Part shown: piece after piece, positions 51,961 through 61,635 of the stretch | Layout: each line of letters starts with the position of its first letter | How positions within the stretch are numbered: position 1 is the stretch's first letter | Sequence record: OZ035756.1 | DNA: 64,000 nt | Direction: 5' to 3' (one strand) | Source of the DNA: Tequatrovirus LF73P3 | Notes under the pieces: model-generated | Told to the model about the DNA's origin: nothing | The model's database searches: none | What the model saw: the letters and a program-made list of their open reading frames with translations, nothing else | Translations under genes and position numbers: made by a program

Positions 51961-52178
51961 AATAAAACCCTTACCTTAAATAGATAAGGGTATTTATTAT
52001 TTTCAAGTATTGTAAAACATTCGATGCAATCGCTTATATTGCCGAATCATCTTTTTAGTAGGTCGAACATAAGTTCCTACACAAGTGGTCATATTAGAGT
52101 CGGTAGGACTTCCTTTAATAAAAAGTTTCCAAACCTTACCACCATTTAACTTTTCAGTATAAATTAATTCGGTTTTCA

Positions 52179-52643
52179 TTAAAACGCTCGGTCAGAAAAA
52201 GAATTTTGAGTTTCAAGCCATTCAATATATTCTGCCGCAGCTTGCATTAAATTTCCTTCATAACCATCGTTATTTTCTTGTGCAGCTAATTTAGCCAATG
52301 CGTATGAAATACGTTCACCCTGAAAAGCGGCTTTAGGTTTATGAATAGCTTGATCAACTCGTTCTACAACTTCTTCAATTTCGCCATTTTCTACTGATTC
52401 AGTATTCCACAAGCACCAATACGTAATTGGCTTATCATAGATGTTAATAACCTTTCCGTCAGAAAGTTCAATTTCAATAATTCCAGTATCAGGTTCTATG
52501 TCATCTTCACATTCTTTTGCAAGTTCACGAACTTTAAATACAGTACCTGCACTAAGTTCCGGCCAGTAATTACACAGCCCTTTATCAGCACGATTAATTC
52601 TAAACCACTTATCTACTGCAATCATGTCCCATCTCCATATCAA
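52179..52643 (-). CDS. hypothetical protein (154 aa), possibly pin
   Basis: position between 49 and nrdC. Confidence 0.4.
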   Translation of the reverse strand: MIWRWDMIAVDKWFRINRADKGLCNYWPELSAGTVFKVRELAKECEDDIEPDTGIIEIELSDGKVINIYDKPITYWCLWNTESVENGEIEEVVERVDQAIHKPKAAFQGERISYALAKLAAQENNDGYEGNLMQAAAEYIEWLETQNSFSDRAF

Positions 52644-52748: not shown

Positions 52749-53096
52749 TTATAGCGTAATCCATTCTCGTACTGTCTGAGTTACTACGCGTTCACGGGGC
52801 TCGACTAGTTCAACAGTTGGAACTGCATAATACCAGTCAGAATGGTAAGAACCTGAGCGAGTTTCATTTACAGACACATGAACGTTATGTTTTGGACTAA
52901 AATAAACACACTGACGATATTGGCATTTGCCATCTTGTACCCAATCTTCTATTTCGACAGGTTTAAGATAATCCGAAAAATCGAAATCATAATTTTCTGA
53001 AAATCCATCATGGTCTTCGATGATTTCGCTCAGAACTGCATCAACATCGTAAATCATATTTACCCCAGTTTGACCATACAATCGCCATATTTCCAT
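52749..53096 (-). CDS. hypothetical protein (115 aa)
   Basis: six-frame ORF. Confidence 0.4.
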   Translation of the reverse strand: MEIWRLYGQTGVNMIYDVDAVLSEIIEDHDGFSENYDFDFSDYLKPVEIEDWVQDGKCQYRQCVYFSPKHNVHVSVNETRSGSYHSDWYYAVPTVELVEPRERVVTQTVREWITL

Positions 53097-53275
53097 TTAG
53101 AAATAGACTTTTCACCATTAGAATAATAAACTTCGAGTTTAGCACGATTATTTTTAATTTGAATAACTTTGGCTGTCATCAAAGTTCCATACCCATAGTA
53201 AACTGCAACCTCATCACCTACATATACCGCGCTTCCGCGGTAGTCATGGATATAATCAGTTCCTTCGAGCATCAT
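53060..53275 (-). CDS. hypothetical protein (71 aa)
   Basis: six-frame ORF. Confidence 0.4.
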   Translation of the reverse strand: MMLEGTDYIHDYRGSAVYVGDEVAVYYGYGTLMTAKVIQIKNNRAKLEVYYSNGEKSISKWKYGDCMVKLG

Positions 53276-53535
53276 TTAAAGTATTCCCGCAATTGGTCAA
53301 ATCCACCAATATGACTTCCATCAGAAGCAAATACTTGTGGCATCGTCAAACCAATTTGAGTATCACGACCCAGTTTCGTTAGAAGCTCAGCGATTTTCTC
53401 ATCATCAAAAACACCTTTTTCCGGCATAATGTTGATAAATTCAAACGGCTGTTTCTTCACAGTCAAAAGACGTTTTGCATTATCACAATACACGCATTTA
53501 TGAATGTTGCTATCATAACCATATACTTTAAACAT
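53272..53535 (-). CDS. nrdC: NrdC thioredoxin
   Basis: 87 aa, active site CVYC, matches recalled T4 NrdC. Confidence 0.85.
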   Translation of the reverse strand: MFKVYGYDSNIHKCVYCDNAKRLLTVKKQPFEFINIMPEKGVFDDEKIAELLTKLGRDTQIGLTMPQVFASDGSHIGGFDQLREYFK

Positions 53536-53536
53536 A

Positions 53537-53794
53537 TTATTCCTTAATTCCTAGTACTTGTTTAAAAGTCTCGTCGTAATCAAGACTTTGGCCAGTTTGT
53601 TCTTTATGTTTGTATATAATATCACTTACTTCTGATAGCATATTTTTATATGAACGGGTTAAAGCAGATTTAAGCACGCTGTATCTATCAGGAAATTTAC
53701 CATGTTCATTATAATACGCTATTGCTAATTCACGGACTGCCTTTTCAGCAGTCTCCATATATTCTTTACGCTTTGTCATTTTCTTCTCGGTCAA
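53537..53794 (-). CDS. hypothetical protein (85 aa)
   Basis: six-frame ORF. Confidence 0.4.
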
Positions 53795-54083
53795 ATCGGT
53801 GTTTGCAATGACGGCATTTATAACGAAGATTACTAGTCTGCCAATGAATTAATTGAACCTGTTCAGTACCGCATTCAGGACAATTAGGAACGTTTTTAGA
53901 AGCCCTTTCGCGACGTTCAACCATAACCATAATAGCATCCCAGGCTGGAGGTTTAAAATCTAAATCATCACAACCATGAATCTTTCCACGCATTTCCAGA
54001 TCGTCTTCTTCACCAGCCATAATAATTTTAATTAGACTGGAATTACTTGAAGCTGCAATATCTTCTAATAGACGCTTTTTCAT
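53766..54083 (-). CDS. zinc-ribbon protein (105 aa)
   Basis: [10 protein letters not shown]...[11 protein letters not shown]4 ribbon. Confidence 0.45.
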
Positions 54084-55006
54084 TTCAGCACCTCAATAGC
54101 ATTACGTAAACCATTTGCTTTGGCGGTTAAAGCCTTAAGAACTTTAGTATGATCTTCAATCTGTTTTTCAACTTCAATTAAGCGTGTATTAAGATATTCG
54201 CGTTCTTCGCTCAGATTATCAGCCTTTTCTGCTTTAGGTTCTTTTACAACTGGCTTATATGTATTAGGGTTCTTCAGTTTAATTAGAATGCGTGAACTGT
54301 ATAACATTGAACCATTATCTTCGGTTTCGTCATACATTTCCACTACGTCCATCATCTCCACCATCGTGCAGAGTTTATAAGACAACGAACGAATAGTTTT
54401 GTTATGCTTATTAATTTCTCTAGCTGTCATGGTGCCGAGATTACGTGAGTAATAATAAGGAACCTGGATATTAATTAATACTGATGAACCACCTGGCTTG
54501 TGTGTTACTTCATCAGCAATAACCCAATCCTTAACATGAACTGTATTTGTACGGTCATCACCCGCGGTAAATAGTTTGCGAGCATGCTTAAAAAGCATAT
54601 TCACTTGGTCATTGAATTGACAAGCAAATTTATCAGCAAATTTAGTTTCAGGAATGGTAGATAACCAATCAGCCAAGTGGGTCTTTTTAACATCGTTAAC
54701 AATAGTAAATTCAACCAAATCAGTTATAGATGTCGCAGATTTAATGAAGCTCGGCTTCATAAAGTTTTCAATGTTATCACGAGCTATCACAGAAGATAGT
54801 AATCGGGAACGTTTGAACCACTCTAGCAAAGAACCAAGAGAATGTGAATATGCATTTTGTGTATCTTTACAAATATGGTTTTCCCATCCAATATAGTCTA
54901 AAAAATCACGAAGAATATTATTGATTACTTCTCTGTGTCCGATCTGATAATTGCGGTGTTTAGTAATAAGACTGTCAAAATAATCAATATAATGTTTACG
55001 AGTCAT
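54080..55006 (-). CDS. hypothetical protein with C-terminal coiled coil (about 309 aa), family member A
   Basis: ATG at 55006 with SD GAGGAG; track start lies upstream of the promoter. Confidence 0.55.
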   Translation of the reverse strand: MTRKHYIDYFDSLITKHRNYQIGHREVINNILRDFLDYIGWENHICKDTQNAYSHSLGSLLEWFKRSRLLSSVIARDNIENFMKPSFIKSATSITDLVEFTIVNDVKKTHLADWLSTIPETKFADKFACQFNDQVNMLFKHARKLFTAGDDRTNTVHVKDWVIADEVTHKPGGSSVLINIQVPYYYSRNLGTMTAREINKHNKTIRSLSYKLCTMVEMMDVVEMYDETEDNGSMLYSSRILIKLKNPNTYKPVVKEPKAEKADNLSEEREYLNTRLIEVEKQIEDHTKVLKALTAKANGLRNAIEVLK

Positions 55007-55034
55007 ATTAATCTCCTCAGTAGAAAGTAAGAAC

Positions 55035-55064
55035 ATTATACCACATCCTTGTGGCAAAGTAAAC
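55035..55064 (-). promoter_or_regulatory. Early promoter (GTTTAC, CCACAAGGATGTGG spacer, TGGTATAAT)
   Basis: near-identical to promoter at 11940..11969. Confidence 0.6.
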
Positions 55065-56083
55065 TAGTTTAGTGCATTTAGTGCATTGTTCAGTTTAGAA
55101 CGTTGCTTCGTAAGATTTTTGACTTTTTCTTGAGCTTTTTCTAGCATCTTTTCAGCTTCTAACACTTCATTAGTTGCTTTAACGAGTTCATCATCTACTG
55201 CCTTGATAGACTTCTCAATCGCATCCGCGTGCCATTTTTCAACAGGTTTAAGACTCGGATTTTCAACAGGAAGAAAATTCACTTTATTGAATTTCCATGC
55301 ATCATTATTACCTGAACTATACATCCAAAATTTAGGATCGTTTGATGAGCAATTGGATAAATTTAAGTTATCTTGCACTTCCTGCTTTTTCTCTTGCGGG
55401 ACTTCGTCCTTTCTCAAAAAATCGTATTTAAATGAAACGATCATATCAAGTTCATACGTTGTTGTATGTTCCCAATTTCGCTCAAAATGAGGTAAAATCT
55501 TAGACTGAACAGCGGCAACAACATCCATATACTTAAATGCTTCTGTCAACTGTGATTTAAGGCATTCGCAAATTGAAAGAGAATTTTTTGTATTAGGTTT
55601 AAAGCTAATTCGCGCAGTTCTGTTATTTTCTTTTAATGGTCTTACTTCCATCTGAAGAGTATAACCATCAAATTTCAGATTCTTTAAGTTAATATCAGAA
55701 CCTTTTAATCGACTCGCAATTGATAAAATTTGTTTTAATTGTTTACGGAATAGAGCAATAAATCTCCATTCAATACGATAATGATTTGGATTGAAAAATC
55801 CAGATGATAAATCGACCTTACTTTGACCAACGCCTTGAACAAATAGAGGATTTTTATAATCAATAGTTTTACAGAAATCGGTGAGCTGCTCACGAGCCGT
55901 CATTTGCGTAATATACCCTGCTTCGCTAAAATTACGCACCCATTCACTGCTATTCGTATATTTAAAATGAATATCACTATTAACTTTATCAGGGTCTAAA
56001 TTATTTTGGCATAAAAATGTCATAACATCACGAGTATAGCTGGCATTACGAACCATATCTTCAATTTGAGAACGAGTTTTCAT
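55064..56083 (-). CDS. hypothetical protein with C-terminal coiled coil (339 aa), family member B
   Basis: ATG with SD AAGGAA; shares motif L..A.RLKG.D with member C. Confidence 0.55.
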   Translation of the reverse strand: MKTRSQIEDMVRNASYTRDVMTFLCQNNLDPDKVNSDIHFKYTNSSEWVRNFSEAGYITQMTAREQLTDFCKTIDYKNPLFVQGVGQSKVDLSSGFFNPNHYRIEWRFIALFRKQLKQILSIASRLKGSDINLKNLKFDGYTLQMEVRPLKENNRTARISFKPNTKNSLSICECLKSQLTEAFKYMDVVAAVQSKILPHFERNWEHTTTYELDMIVSFKYDFLRKDEVPQEKKQEVQDNLNLSNCSSNDPKFWMYSSGNNDAWKFNKVNFLPVENPSLKPVEKWHADAIEKSIKAVDDELVKATNEVLEAEKMLEKAQEKVKNLTKQRSKLNNALNALN

Positions 56084-56091
56084 GGTATTCC

Positions 56092-56979
56092 TTAAGATTT
56101 AAGTAAATCGACAATTTTAATTAACTTTTCACGCTCAGATTTAGCTTTACTACTCAGTCCAGATAGTCTGAAAATTTCATCATCATATTGTTGAATAGAA
56201 ATATTCAGCTCTTCAATCTGTTTATTAAAATAATCAATTTGTTCAGAATGTTTTTCGTTACTACGAACTGGCACAGGTTTCGTAGGCAATGTAGTTGAAC
56301 TGGATTCATTCGGGCGATAAATTAAAATACAACTTGAACCGATAGGGCATTTTGCACCAGATGAATATTCTAATGTTCCAGCTTCTTTTAAAATTTCAAA
56401 AGCTAAACAGAGATGATGCCCCATATTGACATAATCTGTAGAGCGAGCTCTGATATAATAATCAATGCCACGAGTACTAAATTTAAAGCATTTAAGGTCT
56501 TCTGTATTATTGGTCTTAAAAATCATTTGTTTATCTAGACCTTTAGCTAATCGAGCGCCCAATGCTAATAATCGTCGTTGATTTTCCCACAAATCCGTAA
56601 TCATTTGATCGAATGATAATTTTGGCATTAGTCGACCATAAAGGTCATATCCTTTATTATAATTACGAAGGATTTCACTCGCGTTAATACGAGACAATGC
56701 TCCAATTTTATTAAGGGCTTTCATAATGCGATTAGATAAAAGCATTCCAGACCCGTTTGTTCGCTGTAAATGTTTTTCTAATCCAAATCCAATATCAACT
56801 TTAAACTTATCTAAAATTTCGGCATGAACATCTTTATCAATAACATTCAAATCCAAAGTTGGGTTAAATCTATGAAAAAATTTATCTGGCTCTCCACGAC
56901 GAAGTACAGTCCATTCGTTCGATTTTTTATTAACTAAAGATTTAATTACTGCATTGACATTATTAATTACTACTGACAT
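56092..56979 (-). CDS. hypothetical protein with C-terminal coiled coil (about 295 aa), family member C
   Basis: ATG at 56979 with SD GAGGA; track start is TTG 5 codons upstream. Confidence 0.55.
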   Translation of the reverse strand: MSVVINNVNAVIKSLVNKKSNEWTVLRRGEPDKFFHRFNPTLDLNVIDKDVHAEILDKFKVDIGFGLEKHLQRTNGSGMLLSNRIMKALNKIGALSRINASEILRNYNKGYDLYGRLMPKLSFDQMITDLWENQRRLLALGARLAKGLDKQMIFKTNNTEDLKCFKFSTRGIDYYIRARSTDYVNMGHHLCLAFEILKEAGTLEYSSGAKCPIGSSCILIYRPNESSSTTLPTKPVPVRSNEKHSEQIDYFNKQIEELNISIQQYDDEIFRLSGLSSKAKSEREKLIKIVDLLKS

Positions 56980-56986
56980 ATTTTCC

Positions 56987-57388
56987 TCACTCAATTTTAC
57001 TGATTATGCGGAATAAGATTGAACAGACTATATAAGTACCACACACAGATTGAACTAATACCATTCCAAAGAACCAAACAATATTATCAAACCATGTCTG
57101 TTTTACGTCGAAAGGACGTAAACTTACAGTAATATTATCGCCTTTTTCTATTGATGAATACATCTCTGGGGAAATATATTCACTAAATCTATAACCGTCT
57201 TTGAGTTCATATACAGCAATAAACGATAAACTAGACCCTTTTCCTTGAGTTCCTGTAAGGGTATTAACTACAGTAACATCATAATCTTTATAATGCATAT
57301 AATCATTAATTGCGTAATAACCATATGCAACTACTACACATAAACAACATATCAATAAATTCAATCTTTTAATTATCAACTGTTTCAT
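56987..57388 (-). CDS. hypothetical membrane protein (133 aa)
   Basis: N-terminal signal anchor and C-terminal TM segment. Confidence 0.45.
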   Translation of the reverse strand: MKQLIIKRLNLLICCLCVVVAYGYYAINDYMHYKDYDVTVVNTLTGTQGKGSSLSFIAVYELKDGYRFSEYISPEMYSSIEKGDNITVSLRPFDVKQTWFDNIVWFFGMVLVQSVCGTYIVCSILFRIISKIE

Positions 57389-57443
57389 AATAATCTCAAT
57401 TAAAAGGGCTTAGAACCATTATACCATCCTTGGTATAAAGCGG

Positions 57444-57971
57444 TTATGCGAGTACCGTCTTTAACCGTTCTTCAAACTTCCGAAGAGTATTTTGGCGTTC
57501 AGCTCTTTGCTTTTTGTAAGTTTCAATACGCTCTGAAATGAGAGAATATCGTTCATTTATTGATTCTTTCATAAAATCAGGAATTTCACGAGAAGCTTTA
57601 ATCTCGTCAAATTTATCAATAACAGCTTGCTCTTCAGCAATTAAGTTATCATACATTAAAATATCTTTCTTGATGAACTCAATATCTTCTTGAGTTACAC
57701 GAGATAATTTAGATGCTTTATCCTTTTTGTACTGTTCATTAGTATCACGAGACCAGTGTAATGTACGATTTTTATTCGTATTTTTGTAAATTTCTACAAT
57801 ACCGATCTCATCAATAATAACGATCCAATTCCAACGGGATTTGTAAATTTGTCCTCCATCAACAGTGATTTCACCTCCGATTGAGATGTCGTTAAAGAAC
57901 TTGCTTTGTGCTTCAGATTTAAATTTACCATCGTTGTAATTTACCAAGTTGAAAATATCTTTAGCGTTCAT
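57444..57971 (-). CDS. hypothetical protein with C-terminal coiled coil (175 aa)
   Basis: ATG within cassette leader, SD GGAGG. Confidence 0.5.
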   Translation of the reverse strand: MNAKDIFNLVNYNDGKFKSEAQSKFFNDISIGGEITVDGGQIYKSRWNWIVIIDEIGIVEIYKNTNKNRTLHWSRDTNEQYKKDKASKLSRVTQEDIEFIKKDILMYDNLIAEEQAVIDKFDEIKASREIPDFMKESINERYSLISERIETYKKQRAERQNTLRKFEERLKTVLA

Positions 57972-57999
57972 TTTCTGTTCCTCCGTAGTTGATAGTTGT

Positions 58000-58029
58000 A
58001 TAGTACCACAGAGGAACAGTCTTGTAAAC
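58000..58029 (-). promoter_or_regulatory. Early promoter cassette (GTTTAC, TGGTACTAT)
   Basis: minus-strand GTTTACaagactgttcctctgtggTACTATACaactatcaactacggaggaacagaaaATG. Confidence 0.6.
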
Positions 58030-58031
58030 CA

Positions 58032-58346
58032 CTAAAAGAAACTTCTTTCACAATTTTTTCCACTGAACCAGGCGCTCACTGCTTTCTTAGTCTCAGGAGC
58101 AGTGTTATCCATAAACCATTCAAAGGCAGCCTTTTTATGATTCTGGAGGGCTTCTCGGGCTTTAATCTGCTCACGGTCTATTAACACTAACATATGAGCC
58201 TTTCTTGTCACCATGGGCTTCTTATGATTTTTTGAATACTCCCAGTCATTTGTCCATCGCATTGTCGTTGCGAACTGAAATACTGCTTCTTTAATTTTAG
58301 TTTCGTAAATTTCACGAGCCTTTGAGTATAACATCACTACCTCCAT
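58032..58346 (-). CDS. hypothetical protein (100-104 aa)
   Basis: two candidate ATG starts, the inner one with SD GGAGG. Confidence 0.45.
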   Translation of the reverse strand: MEVVMLYSKAREIYETKIKEAVFQFATTMRWTNDWEYSKNHKKPMVTRKAHMLVLIDREQIKAREALQNHKKAAFEWFMDNTAPETKKAVSAWFSGKNCERSFF

Positions 58347-58436
58347 TCACCAGTTTAATTCTAGTCATCTTTTTGATGGCAGTCCATATAATCTATTTCT
58401 GAACTGCCTTTTTGTCTTAGAAGGCCTCTTATGAAT

Positions 58437-59405
58437 TTATTTCAGAAGAGTAACCTCAGCGATTTCTTGCCAACCGTTTTTGTCGGTCATAATAAAGTCA
58501 GCAAGATAAAGAGCAGTACGCAGTGAAACATTGCGTAAACGATTAACATTAACTTTCATCCATGATAATGCTTTATAAGTTTCTTCATCAGAAAGACCGC
58601 GCTTTTGCATCATGTCAGTTGAAAGAATAACATCTTCAACCCTGACCATAATTTCTTCATTAGTGTGAACACCCAAATCCAAATAAACCGAGCGGGACAC
58701 TAATGCTTGTAAATGTGGAGCAAGTTTAGTACCACGGTCTAATTCGCGGTCAATGTCAACGTTTGTGATAAAAACAATCGTTCCTTTAAATTCAAACTCA
58801 CGGTCAATGCCTTTTTCTTCTAAGTAAGAAGATGCAGTGCTCCAGCAGACTTTACGGGTCTCTCCAGTGTCCAGAGCAGCTTTTAGAAGATTAAGAATGT
58901 CCATATCAGAGAAAACATCCACATCATCAATCAAAAGGACAGAATTCTCTTCACGATTATTCCAAAGCTGCTCATAAAGACCAATACCAGAGATTTTACC
59001 ATTAATGCTTTTATATTCAATGTATCCGTTATCATTTGCTTTATTTAAAGCTTTATCTAAAGAATACGTTTTACCAATACCTGCTGCGCCAGAGATAATT
59101 AATGAACGAATATTTCCATTAATAATACCATTCGTCATCATTCCCATAACATTAAATCTTTTATTAATGCGGGTTTTCATATCTTCATATGATTCTTTAA
59201 CTTCTTCAACTTTTACACCATCATATGAAATATCTGATTTGTAAACCCAAACACCGCGACGTTTACCGTCAATTTCAACAAAAACTTTACCATCTCCTTG
59301 TGCATCTACCGGAGCATTATCTGGGAACCATTCGCCTAAGAGCTCAAAAGTTCCAGAGATTTCTTTACCGAAGTAGATACCCTTATTGATAGTTACAGTT
59401 TTCAT
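58437..59405 (-). CDS. AAA+-type P-loop ATPase (about 322 aa)
   Basis: Walker A GAAGIGKT, Walker B LLIDDVD, sensor-like FITNVD; ATG at 59405 with SD GGAG. Confidence 0.6.
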   Translation of the reverse strand: MKTVTINKGIYFGKEISGTFELLGEWFPDNAPVDAQGDGKVFVEIDGKRRGVWVYKSDISYDGVKVEEVKESYEDMKTRINKRFNVMGMMTNGIINGNIRSLIISGAAGIGKTYSLDKALNKANDNGYIEYKSINGKISGIGLYEQLWNNREENSVLLIDDVDVFSDMDILNLLKAALDTGETRKVCWSTASSYLEEKGIDREFEFKGTIVFITNVDIDRELDRGTKLAPHLQALVSRSVYLDLGVHTNEEIMVRVEDVILSTDMMQKRGLSDEETYKALSWMKVNVNRLRNVSLRTALYLADFIMTDKNGWQEIAEVTLLK

Positions 59406-59474: not shown

Positions 59475-59738
59475 TTATTTTAATGTTTGCCAAATTTTTA
59501 CTGCTTCGCGACGAGATACTTCTACAGCTCCAAGTTCTACGGCTTTTTGGCGTCGGCGAGCATGTAAGTCATAATGTTTAATGCGTTTATCTTGAAACCA
59601 AGAACGTTTCATTCCTATTGCTTCTGCCATTTTATGAAGCTCTTCAATATCTCCATCAGTGAACATATGACAATTTTTAGTTGGATGACCGCGAAGTTTC
59701 CATCCATGATTCATTAAAACATCTACGTAAACTGTCAT
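59475..59738 (-). CDS. small conserved protein, DUF4031-like (87 aa)
   Basis: MTVYVDVLMNHGWKLRGHP...HYDLHARRRQKAVELGA pattern. Confidence 0.5.
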   Translation of the reverse strand: MTVYVDVLMNHGWKLRGHPTKNCHMFTDGDIEELHKMAEAIGMKRSWFQDKRIKHYDLHARRRQKAVELGAVEVSRREAVKIWQTLK

Positions 59739-60009: not shown

Positions 60010-60495
60010 TTATACCATTTCTATTATGTGCATATTCTTTTTGCTGTCAAAATATATGCTTTTAACTGTTAACTCAGAATTAATTGGCAGTAAAAACTCT
60101 CTTTCATAATCTACCATACAAAGATTATCATAAAGTTTGTTAAGCTTATCATCATCAGTTTGACCAGATTCTTCAATTGCGATTAAATTTTCTAAAATGT
60201 CAATCATGGCAGTCGAATAGTCAAAAACGTTTGCATTTTTTAACACTACTAAAACATTAGTCATATAGCGTTCTGCAGCAAACGTTTCAGCTATATGAGA
60301 CTCACTGCTAAAGGAAGTTATTCTTTTAAATTTGATTCTCCTATTAACTTCAAACTTATAAGATAGCACTTCCTCTATTGTAAGTCCTCTAAAAAGTATG
60401 TCTTTAATCTCAAGTTTGTCTTTAATGTAATCATTAACACGCTTATGATTAAAATCATTAATTTTGTTGCCAAGGCATTGCATTAAAATATGCAT
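60010..60495 (-). CDS. putative ADP-ribosyltransferase-fold protein (R-S-E class, ModA/ModB-like), 161 aa
   Basis: motifs LFRGLT, SFSSES, YEREFLLP with spacing like ModA (WRG/SAS/EQEVMIP) and ModB; SD GAGGA. Confidence 0.5.
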   Translation of the reverse strand: MHILMQCLGNKINDFNHKRVNDYIKDKLEIKDILFRGLTIEEVLSYKFEVNRRIKFKRITSFSSESHIAETFAAERYMTNVLVVLKNANVFDYSTAMIDILENLIAIEESGQTDDDKLNKLYDNLCMVDYEREFLLPINSELTVKSIYFDSKKNMHIIEMV

Positions 60496-60621: not shown

Positions 60622-61635
60622 TCATTTATAATAACTTCGATGGTTTTCAAGATAAACCCTCTCAAGGAAGTCATCCCAGAAACCCATGTCTACTTTTTGC
60701 TGCATACCGTTCTTAGAAGCTTCAATGGATGCTGCTTCTACTTGATCGACCACATCTTCCAAAAACTCTTGAACAGTTTTAAATGGATGTTTACCCAACT
60801 TCACGTCGAGAATAAATGGAGCGTCTTGAAGTGGATAGACTAAGTCACCAGTTTTGTAAATTTCCAATAGTTGGAGTCCACCACGGCAAGCATGACTCAG
60901 AGCTTTCCAGTCAATGCCCTCATTCGCTTCAGCCTTACGAGCACGTTCGCCGTATTCAGCATCAAGTTTATTCAAAGATTGCTTAAGCTCGATAAGAGAA
61001 AGCGTTGTCTGATATTTACGACCCAACACAGTGTAGAACGTTTGTGGACCTGTTTTCTCATGATTATGGAACACCCATTCACAGAATTCGTTCTCTGGAA
61101 GACGATGCTTAATATCTTCAATCTTAGTTCGACGTTGCTTAATGGAACCGTCTTCTTGATAATCAACCCACTGATCAGGGATTTGATTAACTACTTTCAA
61201 TACATCACGTAATGCGGCCAAACGAGAACCCTTAACACCGTATTTAGAAGCTTGCTTGCGAACATATCCTAAGTAGGATTTCATGTTAGTCGTATAAAAA
61301 CGAGAACGATTGTCTTGAATAAACTTCCATACATCAGGCAAATCAGATTTAACTACCAGTTCAGGTGGAGTGTGGAGCATATCCAATGCTACAGTTTCAC
61401 CATCTGCTGCTAATTTAAAGAAATACTTAAGACTGTATAGTTCATGGTCAATATCATCTTTAGTGTTTTTAGATGATGTGTTGTTAGTGTTTTTACTCAT
61501 ATGCTCTTTAACATTTCCGATAAGAATATCACGAGCAGGAGGAACAAAGATTTCTTTAAAATCTACATCAGATTCTGGAGTAGAAGTTCCATAAAGATGA
61601 CTACCAAAATAGCTTTTCATTACTGTTTTCATCAT
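60622..61635 (-). CDS. Pol-beta-superfamily nucleotidyltransferase-fold protein (337 aa)
   Basis: N-terminal YFGSHLYGTSTPESDVDF fits the G[SG]x(9-13)DxD NTase signature; helical C-terminal domain. Confidence 0.5.
   Translation of the reverse strand: MMKTVMKSYFGSHLYGTSTPESDVDFKEIFVPPARDILIGNVKEHMSKNTNNTSSKNTKDDIDHELYSLKYFFKLAADGETVALDMLHTPPELVVKSDLPDVWKFIQDNRSRFYTTNMKSYLGYVRKQASKYGVKGSRLAALRDVLKVVNQIPDQWVDYQEDGSIKQRRTKIEDIKHRLPENEFCEWVFHNHEKTGPQTFYTVLGRKYQTTLSLIELKQSLNKLDAEYGERARKAEANEGIDWKALSHACRGGLQLLEIYKTGDLVYPLQDAPFILDVKLGKHPFKTVQEFLEDVVDQVEAASIEASKNGMQQKVDMGFWDDFLERVYLENHRSYYK

Follow-up and report, generated by a model that had tools for sequence, protein, structure and literature searches.

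The 64,000-nucleotide stretch analysed here, which we call the window, comes from the T4-like phage Tequatrovirus LF73P3 (record OZ035756.1), and our subject is a run of three consecutive genes, A, B and C, that correspond to nrdC.3, nrdC.5 and nrdC.6. In a megablast search, the segment from 53500 to 58500 matched 745 phage records at 90-96% identity, most of them Escherichia or Shigella Tequatrovirus. Gene names were taken from the annotated relatives SA21RB and T4, with whose annotation the window shares the order nrdC.8-.7-.6-.5-(.4)-.3-.2-.1-nrdC; beyond nrdC.8 come nrdC.9 (DUF7203) and then nrdC.10, an AAA-type ATPase. The gene set lies on the minus strand throughout, as do the helices, motifs and promoter placed below. 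The reading we favour, with moderate confidence, is that A, B and C belong with NrdC.4 to an ancient superfamily of accessory genes that sits in a counter-defence-rich stretch and has been remodelled by recombination.

Gene A (54080..55006) encodes 308 amino acids (aa) that match phrog_1435 over residues 1-308 (E = 1.8e-115), the PHROG that also holds the NrdC.4 of relatives; all its homologues carry the precomputed Pfam label PF26897, and homologues of 308-309 aa back its ATG at 55006. Gene B (55064..56083; 339 aa; phrog_2351) is a full-length DUF7235 protein (PF23882): it scores 417.1 bits against a gathering score of 30 bits (E = 6.3e-125), with residues 1-339 on profile positions 1-307 of 307. 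It is 92.6% identical to T4 NrdC.5 over 340 columns and 96% identical to the SA21RB protein, and it keeps the syntenic position between nrdC.6 and nrdC.4/nrdC.3. Gene C (56092..56979; 295 aa) matches phrog_2257 over residues 1-295 (E = 5e-150), has homologues labelled PF26899 and is 96.5% identical to T4 NrdC.6 over residues 1-258. Homologues of 335-342 aa and 295-296 aa fit the ATGs chosen for B and C, respectively, and with such lengths in support of the starts, the coordinates and reading frames first proposed for the three genes proved correct. Unlike B, A and C miss the DUF7235 threshold (A with 15.2 bits and E = 0.015 over residues 133-308 only, C with nothing at E <= 0.1) and are related to T4 NrdC.5 at superfamily level only.

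All three proteins appear to end in a coiled coil. We used an ad hoc heptad score in 28-residue windows over the C-terminal ~53 residues of the 66 minus-strand open reading frames (ORFs) of at least 100 aa. The top four ranks go to B, NrdC.8, A and C, whose scores of 7.0-7.65 stand above a background with a median of 1.95, a 90th percentile of 4.45 and a next best value of 5.15, and shuffles of the last 60 residues equal the observed scores in 0-3 of 500 trials. The region spans about residues 262-308 in A (54083..54223; score 7.0, reached by 1/500 shuffles), residues 280-339 in B (55067..55246; 7.65, 0/500) and residues 241-295 in C (56095..56259; 7.0, 1/500), while NrdC.8 scores 7.1 (3/500). 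AlphaFold2 gives B a single helix at residues 280-338, with block values of the predicted local distance difference test (pLDDT) of 69-91, rising to about 90, and for C it yields a usable model (pLDDT 77, predicted template modelling score 0.66) that has helices at 241-271 and 277-294. Heptad periodicity and the long uninterrupted helix together predict coiled-coil helices, in agreement with the initial annotation, which had assigned C-terminal coiled coils to A, B, C and a 175-aa protein (NrdC.8). Two natural variants touch this region. In the T4 reference (AF158101.6; L036 2523-3350, equivalent to window 56092-56979) nrdC.6 is annotated with 275 aa: the frame shifts after ...NKQIEEL and ends in IFLFNNMMMKFSDYLD, and the coiled-coil sequence (ISIQQYDDEIFRLSGL...LLKS) persists further downstream in a different frame, which may reflect either a frameshift in laboratory T4 that removed the coiled coil or an error in the reference sequence. 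The other variant, gp220 of Shigella phage Sf25 (P0092, 378 aa), is an NrdC.6 with an internal tandem duplication of ~83 residues, in which the duplicated part (residues ~167-258) takes in the beta domain and linker and reaches into the coiled coil.

A motif common to B and C had also been noticed at the outset. It is real, and alignments identify it as the signature of the whole family, present in A too: it occupies residues 137-151 in A (MLFKHARKLFTAGDD; 54554..54598), 119-130 in B (ILSIASRLKGSD; 55694..55729) and 137-149 in C (LLALGARLAKGLD; 56533..56571, within invariant columns 133-152). It aligns with QILKSASKLCYGD of NrdC.4 and with related families, the motif of C being matched to NWRMILALGSRLCVGSS of a Kanagawavirus protein and to NRLIAQGARLCSGND of gp94 from phage fHe-Yen9-01. 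In an alignment of 14 sequences, all groups are collinear, with a first motif (S/G-R/K-φ-φ-S/T-x-x-x-A-x-x-x-L-x-x-F), then the signature (roughly [IL]-L-x-x-[AG]-[SA]-[RK]-L-x-x-G-x-D, a conserved helix-turn), a conserved linker proline and an extreme C-terminus common to the groups, L-x-x-A-[IL]-x-x-L-K. The superfamily would then be built from a variable N-terminal helical region, the helix-turn motif, a small alpha/beta domain, a Pro-containing linker and a coiled coil of 45-60 residues that closes with this ending.

Homology was traced by comparing profiles. First-pass hhalign on shallow alignments was weak, and usable links came only with richer alignments and with bridging families, by which we mean proteins of 292-338 aa encoded at the same position in other Tevenvirinae genera, just upstream of nrdC.2 or nrdC, and each ending in a coiled coil. 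These are K338 of Kanagawavirus (Entb_45, PEi26), Kp324 of Jiaodavirus (311F) and Y292 and Y313 of Tegunavirus (fHe-Yen9-01), of which Y313 is encoded elsewhere, between nrdC.11 and nrdC.10; Apo343, a 343-aa protein of Acinetobacter phage Apostate (Lazarusvirus, subfamily Twarogvirinae) that is likewise encoded upstream of a glutaredoxin gene, was treated alongside them. NrdC.3 and NrdC.4, which share phrog_1435, align over residues 1-231 (hhalign E = 1.7e-13, probability 98%), with BLASTP reaching E = 7e-11 between divergent members and A itself matching T4 NrdC.4 at E = 4.7e-8 and 24% identity. NrdC.4 aligns with NrdC.5 almost from end to end (probability 82%, E = 1.1e-5). NrdC.6, compared directly with NrdC.3, NrdC.4 and NrdC.5, gives E = 0.003-0.09, near the controls. 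The NrdC.6 hidden Markov model (HMM) does align with K338 over residues 106-278, including NQRRLLALGARLAKGLDKQM against NWRMILALGSRLCVGSSREL. When the family HMMs were run against 617 ORFs (those of at least 100 aa from the window and from all loci fetched to that point), the best non-self matches were almost only syntenic proteins of 290-345 aa. Across the whole PHROG library, K338 matches the NrdC.5 family at 8.4e-6 and the NrdC.6 family at 4.2e-5 (residues 148-336), NrdC.4 matches the K338 family at 1.1e-3 (all three values library-corrected), and Kp324 matches the K338 and NrdC.3/4 families.

As a control for the coiled coil, the last 65 residues were cut off and hhalign was repeated. The graph is still connected, through links that are transitive: NrdC.3-NrdC.4 at 5.8e-14, NrdC.4-NrdC.5 at 1.8e-4, NrdC.4-Kp324 at 6e-5, NrdC.4-K338 at 8e-4, K338-Kp324 at 2.6e-5, NrdC.6-K338 at 1.6e-4 and NrdC.6-Y292 at 7.8e-4. 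The NrdC.10 controls treated in the same way all give at least 0.083, and with full-length profiles the NrdC.8 and NrdC.10 controls give at least 0.04. Apo343 loses every link on removal of its coiled coil and is kept as a possible member only. Foldseek with the NrdC.6 model (pLDDT 77) returned, at probability 1.0 and template modelling (TM) scores of 0.4-0.5, uncharacterised proteins of ~300-335 aa with 11-17% identity from the T4-like phages IME523, PM2, Acj9, Acj61, fHyAci03, Mineola and fHe-Yen9-01. Y313 (fHe-Yen9-01 gp111, L016:7961-8902, 313 aa) resembles the family, ends in a coiled coil and is encoded outside the usual slot; its sequence links are weak (E = 4.4e-4 with the NrdC.5 HMM, in an 11-sequence search), and it is probably the 313-aa match of the NrdC.6 model in BFVD. 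Two further candidates were rejected: NrdC.8 as a fifth member (hhalign E of at least 0.04 against all family profiles, superfamily HMM E = 0.44), and the ~256-263-aa proteins that adjoin the family in fHe-Yen9-01, 311F and Entb_45, which have no coiled coil and no profile matches. We are fairly confident that NrdC.3, NrdC.4, NrdC.5 and NrdC.6 are one ancient, highly diverged superfamily, restricted to Tevenvirinae, in which the place of NrdC.6 is the least certain. The initial annotation had the three genes as a locally duplicated family: the remote kinship is supported by profiles, bridges and Foldseek, but the duplication does not look recent, as the paralogues are below about 25% identity and appear to be old.

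Several observations weigh against the reading of an ancient, recombination-remodelled superfamily with a counter-defence role. Pairwise BLASTP is not significant for A-B (E = 0.14) or B-C (E = 0.32), and the A-C value (E = 0.003), confined to the C-terminal 100 residues, was counted as not significant as well; simple pairwise alignment thus fails to bring out the family that the initial annotation described, and the claim rests on profile, bridging and structural evidence. The profile alignments are shallow (effective number of sequences about 1.5-2.4), those of the bridging families are thin, with few relatives retrieved, and the hhalign probabilities besides NrdC.3-NrdC.4 are only 25-82%. 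The weakest link is NrdC.6, which joins through the bridging families only. The Foldseek matches, which lie in BFVD, fit these families by genus and length, the only two features on which that assignment was made. The AlphaFold2 model of B is poor except for its terminal helix (pLDDT 43), which leaves no direct fold comparison, and all fold searches used the model of C. Solved structures hold no relatives by sequence (across the Protein Data Bank, PDB) or by fold, and the NrdC.5 profile drew just 13 proteins and no cellular homologue from 1.84 billion representatives, so neither search offers a mechanistic handle. Finally, no gene-wide positive selection was found against six Tequatrovirus loci, the ratio of non-synonymous to synonymous substitution rates (dN/dS) being below 1 everywhere. 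A word-index search with B gave named matches that are all T4-like phages or assemblies labelled E. coli, Shigella, Salmonella or Enterococcus. With no relatives among solved structures, 13 proteins from the profile and named matches confined to these phages and assemblies, there is no sign, as far as such comparisons reach, of an enzymatic signature or of host mimicry.

One might therefore hold that only NrdC.3 and NrdC.4, perhaps with NrdC.5, are true paralogues, and that NrdC.6 and its ~300-aa counterparts in other genera have no kinship with them, their coiled coil being of independent origin and their short motif a chance recurrence. Beyond the failed pairwise comparisons and the near-control values of NrdC.6, this view can point to Pfam, which keeps three separate families (PF26897, PF23882 and PF26899), and to Apo343, whose links vanish without the coiled coil. 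The bridging links of NrdC.6 to K338 and Y292, however, hold without it; the NrdC.6-K338 alignment takes in the motif, and the PHROG match at 4.2e-5 covers K338 residues 148-336. Foldseek finds T4-like phage proteins of similar length at probability 1.0, and gene order, length, synteny and C-terminal ending are the same, whereas NrdC.8, which has a coiled coil, yields no such matches. We consider it unlikely that the genes are unrelated.

The reading we favour also draws on how the genes come and go. Copies were counted with a superfamily HMM built from members of every group, which is a means of counting and not an independent test of homology; members score E <= 1e-12 and everything else at least 0.03. 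Copy number varies across relatives: four in most Tequatrovirus, three in the window and in ECO07P1, three (NrdC.4, an NrdC.5-like protein and an NrdC.6 46-52% identical to C) in nine IMG/VR phage contigs (L007-L015, of which L008 is Escherichia phage vB_EcoM_VR20), two in fHe-Yen9-01, one in Kanagawavirus, Jiaodavirus and Lazarusvirus, and none in those parts of the Aeromonas, Cronobacter and Vibrio phages that were fetched. By tblastn in 50,697 phage records, NrdC.3 is found in 653, NrdC.4 in 554, NrdC.5 in 581, NrdC.6 in 741 and NrdC.10 in 1311.

In most relatives nrdC.4 sits between nrdC.3 and nrdC.5, and it is absent from the window. Directly upstream of A, 57 bases together with the opening codons of the gene (GTTTAC...TATAAT early promoter, ribosome-binding site, ATGACTCGTAA) are what stands in front of nrdC.4 in SA21RB, where an early promoter is annotated upstream of that gene. 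In the window, this promoter, ribosome-binding site and start codon (55007..55063) include a T4-type TTTACT-17-TATAAT element with TG, the promoter-like site being at 55063-55035. Past the junction, alignment with SA21RB and ECO07P1 has the sequence run on as nrdC.3, so that the first codons of A derive from nrdC.4; the same junction is present in 26 of 500 matching records, the window included. Because nrdC.4 and nrdC.3 both begin M-(K)-T-R, a crossover within this short shared 5' stretch removed nrdC.4 and placed nrdC.3 under the nrdC.4 promoter. Judged from the junction, the origin of the genotype is clear, and it is through this loss that the window has three copies. A different deletion is seen in P0033 (299 aa, on contigs up to 167 kb), in which NrdC.5 residues 145-271 are fused to NrdC.3 residues 128-308 at ...WKFNKVN|MLFKHARK, a natural deletion that takes out nrdC.4 and parts of both neighbours. 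We had considered a homologous nrdC.3/nrdC.5 exchange for it and rejected this, as the fusion is out of register and thus a deletion product. Split genes occur as well, for nrdC.4 in one Tequatrovirus contig (L006:9950-10982) and for the Kp324 family gene in one Jiaodavirus contig (L025:3001-3974), each in two ORFs; these are apparent frameshifts or pseudogenes, consistent with frequent loss of family members.

The gene nrdC.3 is itself a mosaic. A is 64% identical to T4 NrdC.3 overall, with residues 1-60 and 271-308 at 90-100% and a divergent central cassette at 23-70% (residues 76-260), and tblastn identities for nrdC.3 are bimodal, with 345 records at 90-99% and 292 at 60-80%. Against the six Tequatrovirus loci, nrdC.3/5/6/7 have dN/dS values of 0.09-0.24, the divergent nrdC.3 allele reaches 0.38-0.42, and neighbouring genes give 0.00-0.13. 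Constraint is relaxed and selection is still purifying, and diversity arises mainly from gene gain and loss and from the mosaic cassette in the middle of nrdC.3. The initial annotation had called the family diversifying and under selection; this is supported in part, by values above those of the neighbours, by gain and loss and by the mosaic gene, but dN/dS is below 1 throughout.

As to function, experiment speaks for one member. A T4 clone with a deletion fails to plate on ECOR17 or on MG1655 carrying ECOR17 dsr1, and T4 nrdC.5 expressed alone restores plating on Dsr1-carrying cells (Srikant, Guegler and Laub 2022, PMC9391042). According to a 2026 preprint, major capsid proteins of phages are recognised by the tetratricopeptide repeat (TPR) sensor of Dsr1, a capsid-sensing domain that Avs7 and thousands of further defence proteins also have (PMC12803255). 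Nearby genes also counter defences: gp49.2, present in the window at 95% identity, is an OLD inhibitor (PMC13096335), and NrdC.1, whose window copy is 100% identical to its T4 counterpart, is a Septu inhibitor (bioRxiv 10.1101/2025.11.20.689424). Our literature search found no paper on NrdC.3, NrdC.4, NrdC.6 or DUF7235. By orthology to T4 nrdC.5, B is very probably a functional anti-Dsr1 gene. A and C are anti-defence candidates because NrdC.5, their superfamily relative, defeats Dsr1 in T4, and we put the chance that they have such a role at somewhat short of even. The host-range or anti-defence function that had been proposed for all three genes is therefore backed by a published experiment for one of them, through its T4 ortholog, and stays a candidate role for the other two.

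The mechanism that we favour is as follows. The family members are most likely early or middle accessory genes, and B, as shown for T4 NrdC.5, very probably neutralises the host SIR2 NADase defence Dsr1; it probably acts as an oligomer through its C-terminal helix. It might bind Dsr1 ahead of the late capsid trigger and so block sensing or NADase activation, much as the phage protein DSAD1 acts on DSR2. DSAD1 is said to bind DSR2 directly, and on this analogy inhibition of Dsr1 by direct binding of NrdC.5 is a tentative possibility. A and C would share this conserved core and scaffold with B but differ in their variable regions and act on other host targets, in a repertoire that recombination reshapes. 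A stronger version, in which the superfamily is a modular inhibitor scaffold oligomerised by coiled coils and each paralogue blocks a different host immune sensor, seems to us improbable; it would have diversified N-terminal and central regions address, for example, different TPR capsid-sensing clades, and would make the 1-4 copies per genome a host-range 'key ring' reshuffled by recombination between paralogues.

It is also conceivable, though we doubt it, that the family is real and its primary role lies in host takeover or in replication or membrane-associated functions, together with NrdC.7, NrdC.8, NrdC.10 (AAA ATPase) and NrdC.11 (nucleotidyltransferase), and that the effect on Dsr1 is indirect, for instance through altered timing of late proteins or NAD+ economy. 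A protein with two transmembrane segments adjoins the family in two lineages (NrdC.7, and a 71-aa ORF in L008 and L011), NrdC.8 to NrdC.10 are conserved under strong purifying selection, NrdC.10 occurs in 1311 phage records, and the published Dsr1 work consists of genetic rescue only (PMC9391042). Family members are nevertheless dispensable and often lost, as the split copies in L006 and L025 illustrate, and nrdC.5 lies within non-essential DNA lost by a viable T4 clone (PMC9391042). NrdC.5 alone restores plating specifically on Dsr1-carrying cells, the adjacent genes are bona fide anti-defence factors, and the family is absent from Aeromonas, Cronobacter and Vibrio phages in which NrdC.10 persists. 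That the paralogues, possibly with NrdC.8, hetero-oligomerise through their coiled coils into one single-function complex is very improbable: the ending conserved across paralogues within a genome and the adjacency of the genes, some probably co-transcribed, would suit it, but many phages (Kanagawavirus, Jiaodavirus, Lazarusvirus) have a single copy, nrdC.4 is missing from the window and 25 other records, nrdC.6 of the T4 reference has a frameshift that leaves it without the coiled coil, and plasmid-borne nrdC.5 rescues alone, although the paralogues left in that T4 clone were not checked.

Besides T4 NrdC.5 and the T4 NrdC.3/NrdC.4 family, the closest known systems are DSAD1 and the T4 counter-defence clusters. 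Three reports describe DSAD1, from an SPbeta-group phage, as counteracting DSR2 (PMC10973363, PMC10981675, PMC11087589). Both DSAD1 and NrdC.5 are made by phages against a defence-associated sirtuin NADase, and DSAD1 serves as our working analogy, but its target is the tail-tube sensor DSR2, in Bacillus phages, whereas that of NrdC.5 is the TPR capsid sensor Dsr1; PDB-wide sequence searches and fold searches returned no DSAD1 or DSR2-complex chain, DSAD1 itself not having been compared directly. The T4 counter-defence genes gp49.2, NrdC.1 and the dmd-tifA-adfA anti-toxin-antitoxin island share the neighbourhood and the logic, being small to medium early accessory genes that are dispensable in the laboratory, decide host range and are prone to amplification and deletion. 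They are unrelated in sequence to the nrdC family, and none is a multi-copy paralogous set with a conserved oligomerisation helix.

The neighbouring genes can be described briefly. The small membrane protein that had been noted beside the three genes is borne out as NrdC.7 (56987..57388; 133 aa; phrog_2547), a predicted membrane protein in the T4 annotation with hydrophobic segments at about residues 4-27 and 103-129 (Kyte-Doolittle); the adjoining nrdC.8 (57444..57971; 175 aa) has its best heptad window at residues 146-173. Two contigs with a divergent NrdC.6 and no nrdC.7 have a 71-aa ORF flanked by nrdC.6 and the nrdC.5-like gene, again with two hydrophobic segments (L008:8771-8986, L011:8669-8884), so that both lineages have a small membrane protein alongside the family, though not in the same place. 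On the other side, nrdC.2 (53766-54083) encodes a small zinc-ribbon protein, with weak DUF7129 and Zn-ribbon matches, and has divergent allele classes among Tequatrovirus (67-97% identity, dN/dS up to 0.42); its allele co-varies with the adjacent nrdC.3 allele in L004 and not in L005. Further away, a homologue of the Lon protease inhibitor gene pin (52006-52625) appears split, with T4 Pin residues 1-146 matching 52188-52625 and residues 139-161 matching 52006-52074 in a separate 58-aa ORF, and T4 gp49.3 has no match in the window, a 71-aa ORF (53060-53275) taking its place. Between nrdC.10 and nrdC.11 lie a DUF4031 protein (59475-59738; E = 1.6e-21) and a 161-aa ORF without a Pfam match (60010-60495), whose counterpart in ECO07P1 is annotated as a modA-like NAD-protein ADP-ribosyltransferase; NrdC.11 (60622-61635) matches the RlaP nucleotidyltransferase family (E = 3.4e-11).

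These genes have long been annotated in T4, the role of NrdC.5 and its anti-defence context are published, and no concept is changed here. We did not find described before the union of NrdC.3, NrdC.4, NrdC.5 and NrdC.6 with proteins that other T4-like genera carry in single copy, the signature motif and C-terminal ending, or the recombination origin of the genotype without nrdC.4; A and C are new candidates for a known class, phage accessory proteins that counter defences, and do not make up a novel type of system. Within the cluster only NrdC.5 has a known role, and the finding that NrdC.3, NrdC.4, NrdC.6 and the single-copy relatives in T4-like phages of Klebsiella, Enterobacter, Edwardsiella and Yersinia share its architecture yields a short list of anti-defence candidates in the best-studied phage group. 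For mutagenesis, it marks which parts are conserved (the central motif and the C-terminal coiled coil) and which vary (the N-terminus and the central cassette of nrdC.3). It also explains natural variation in copy number, which may contribute to differences in host range among therapeutic T4-like phages.

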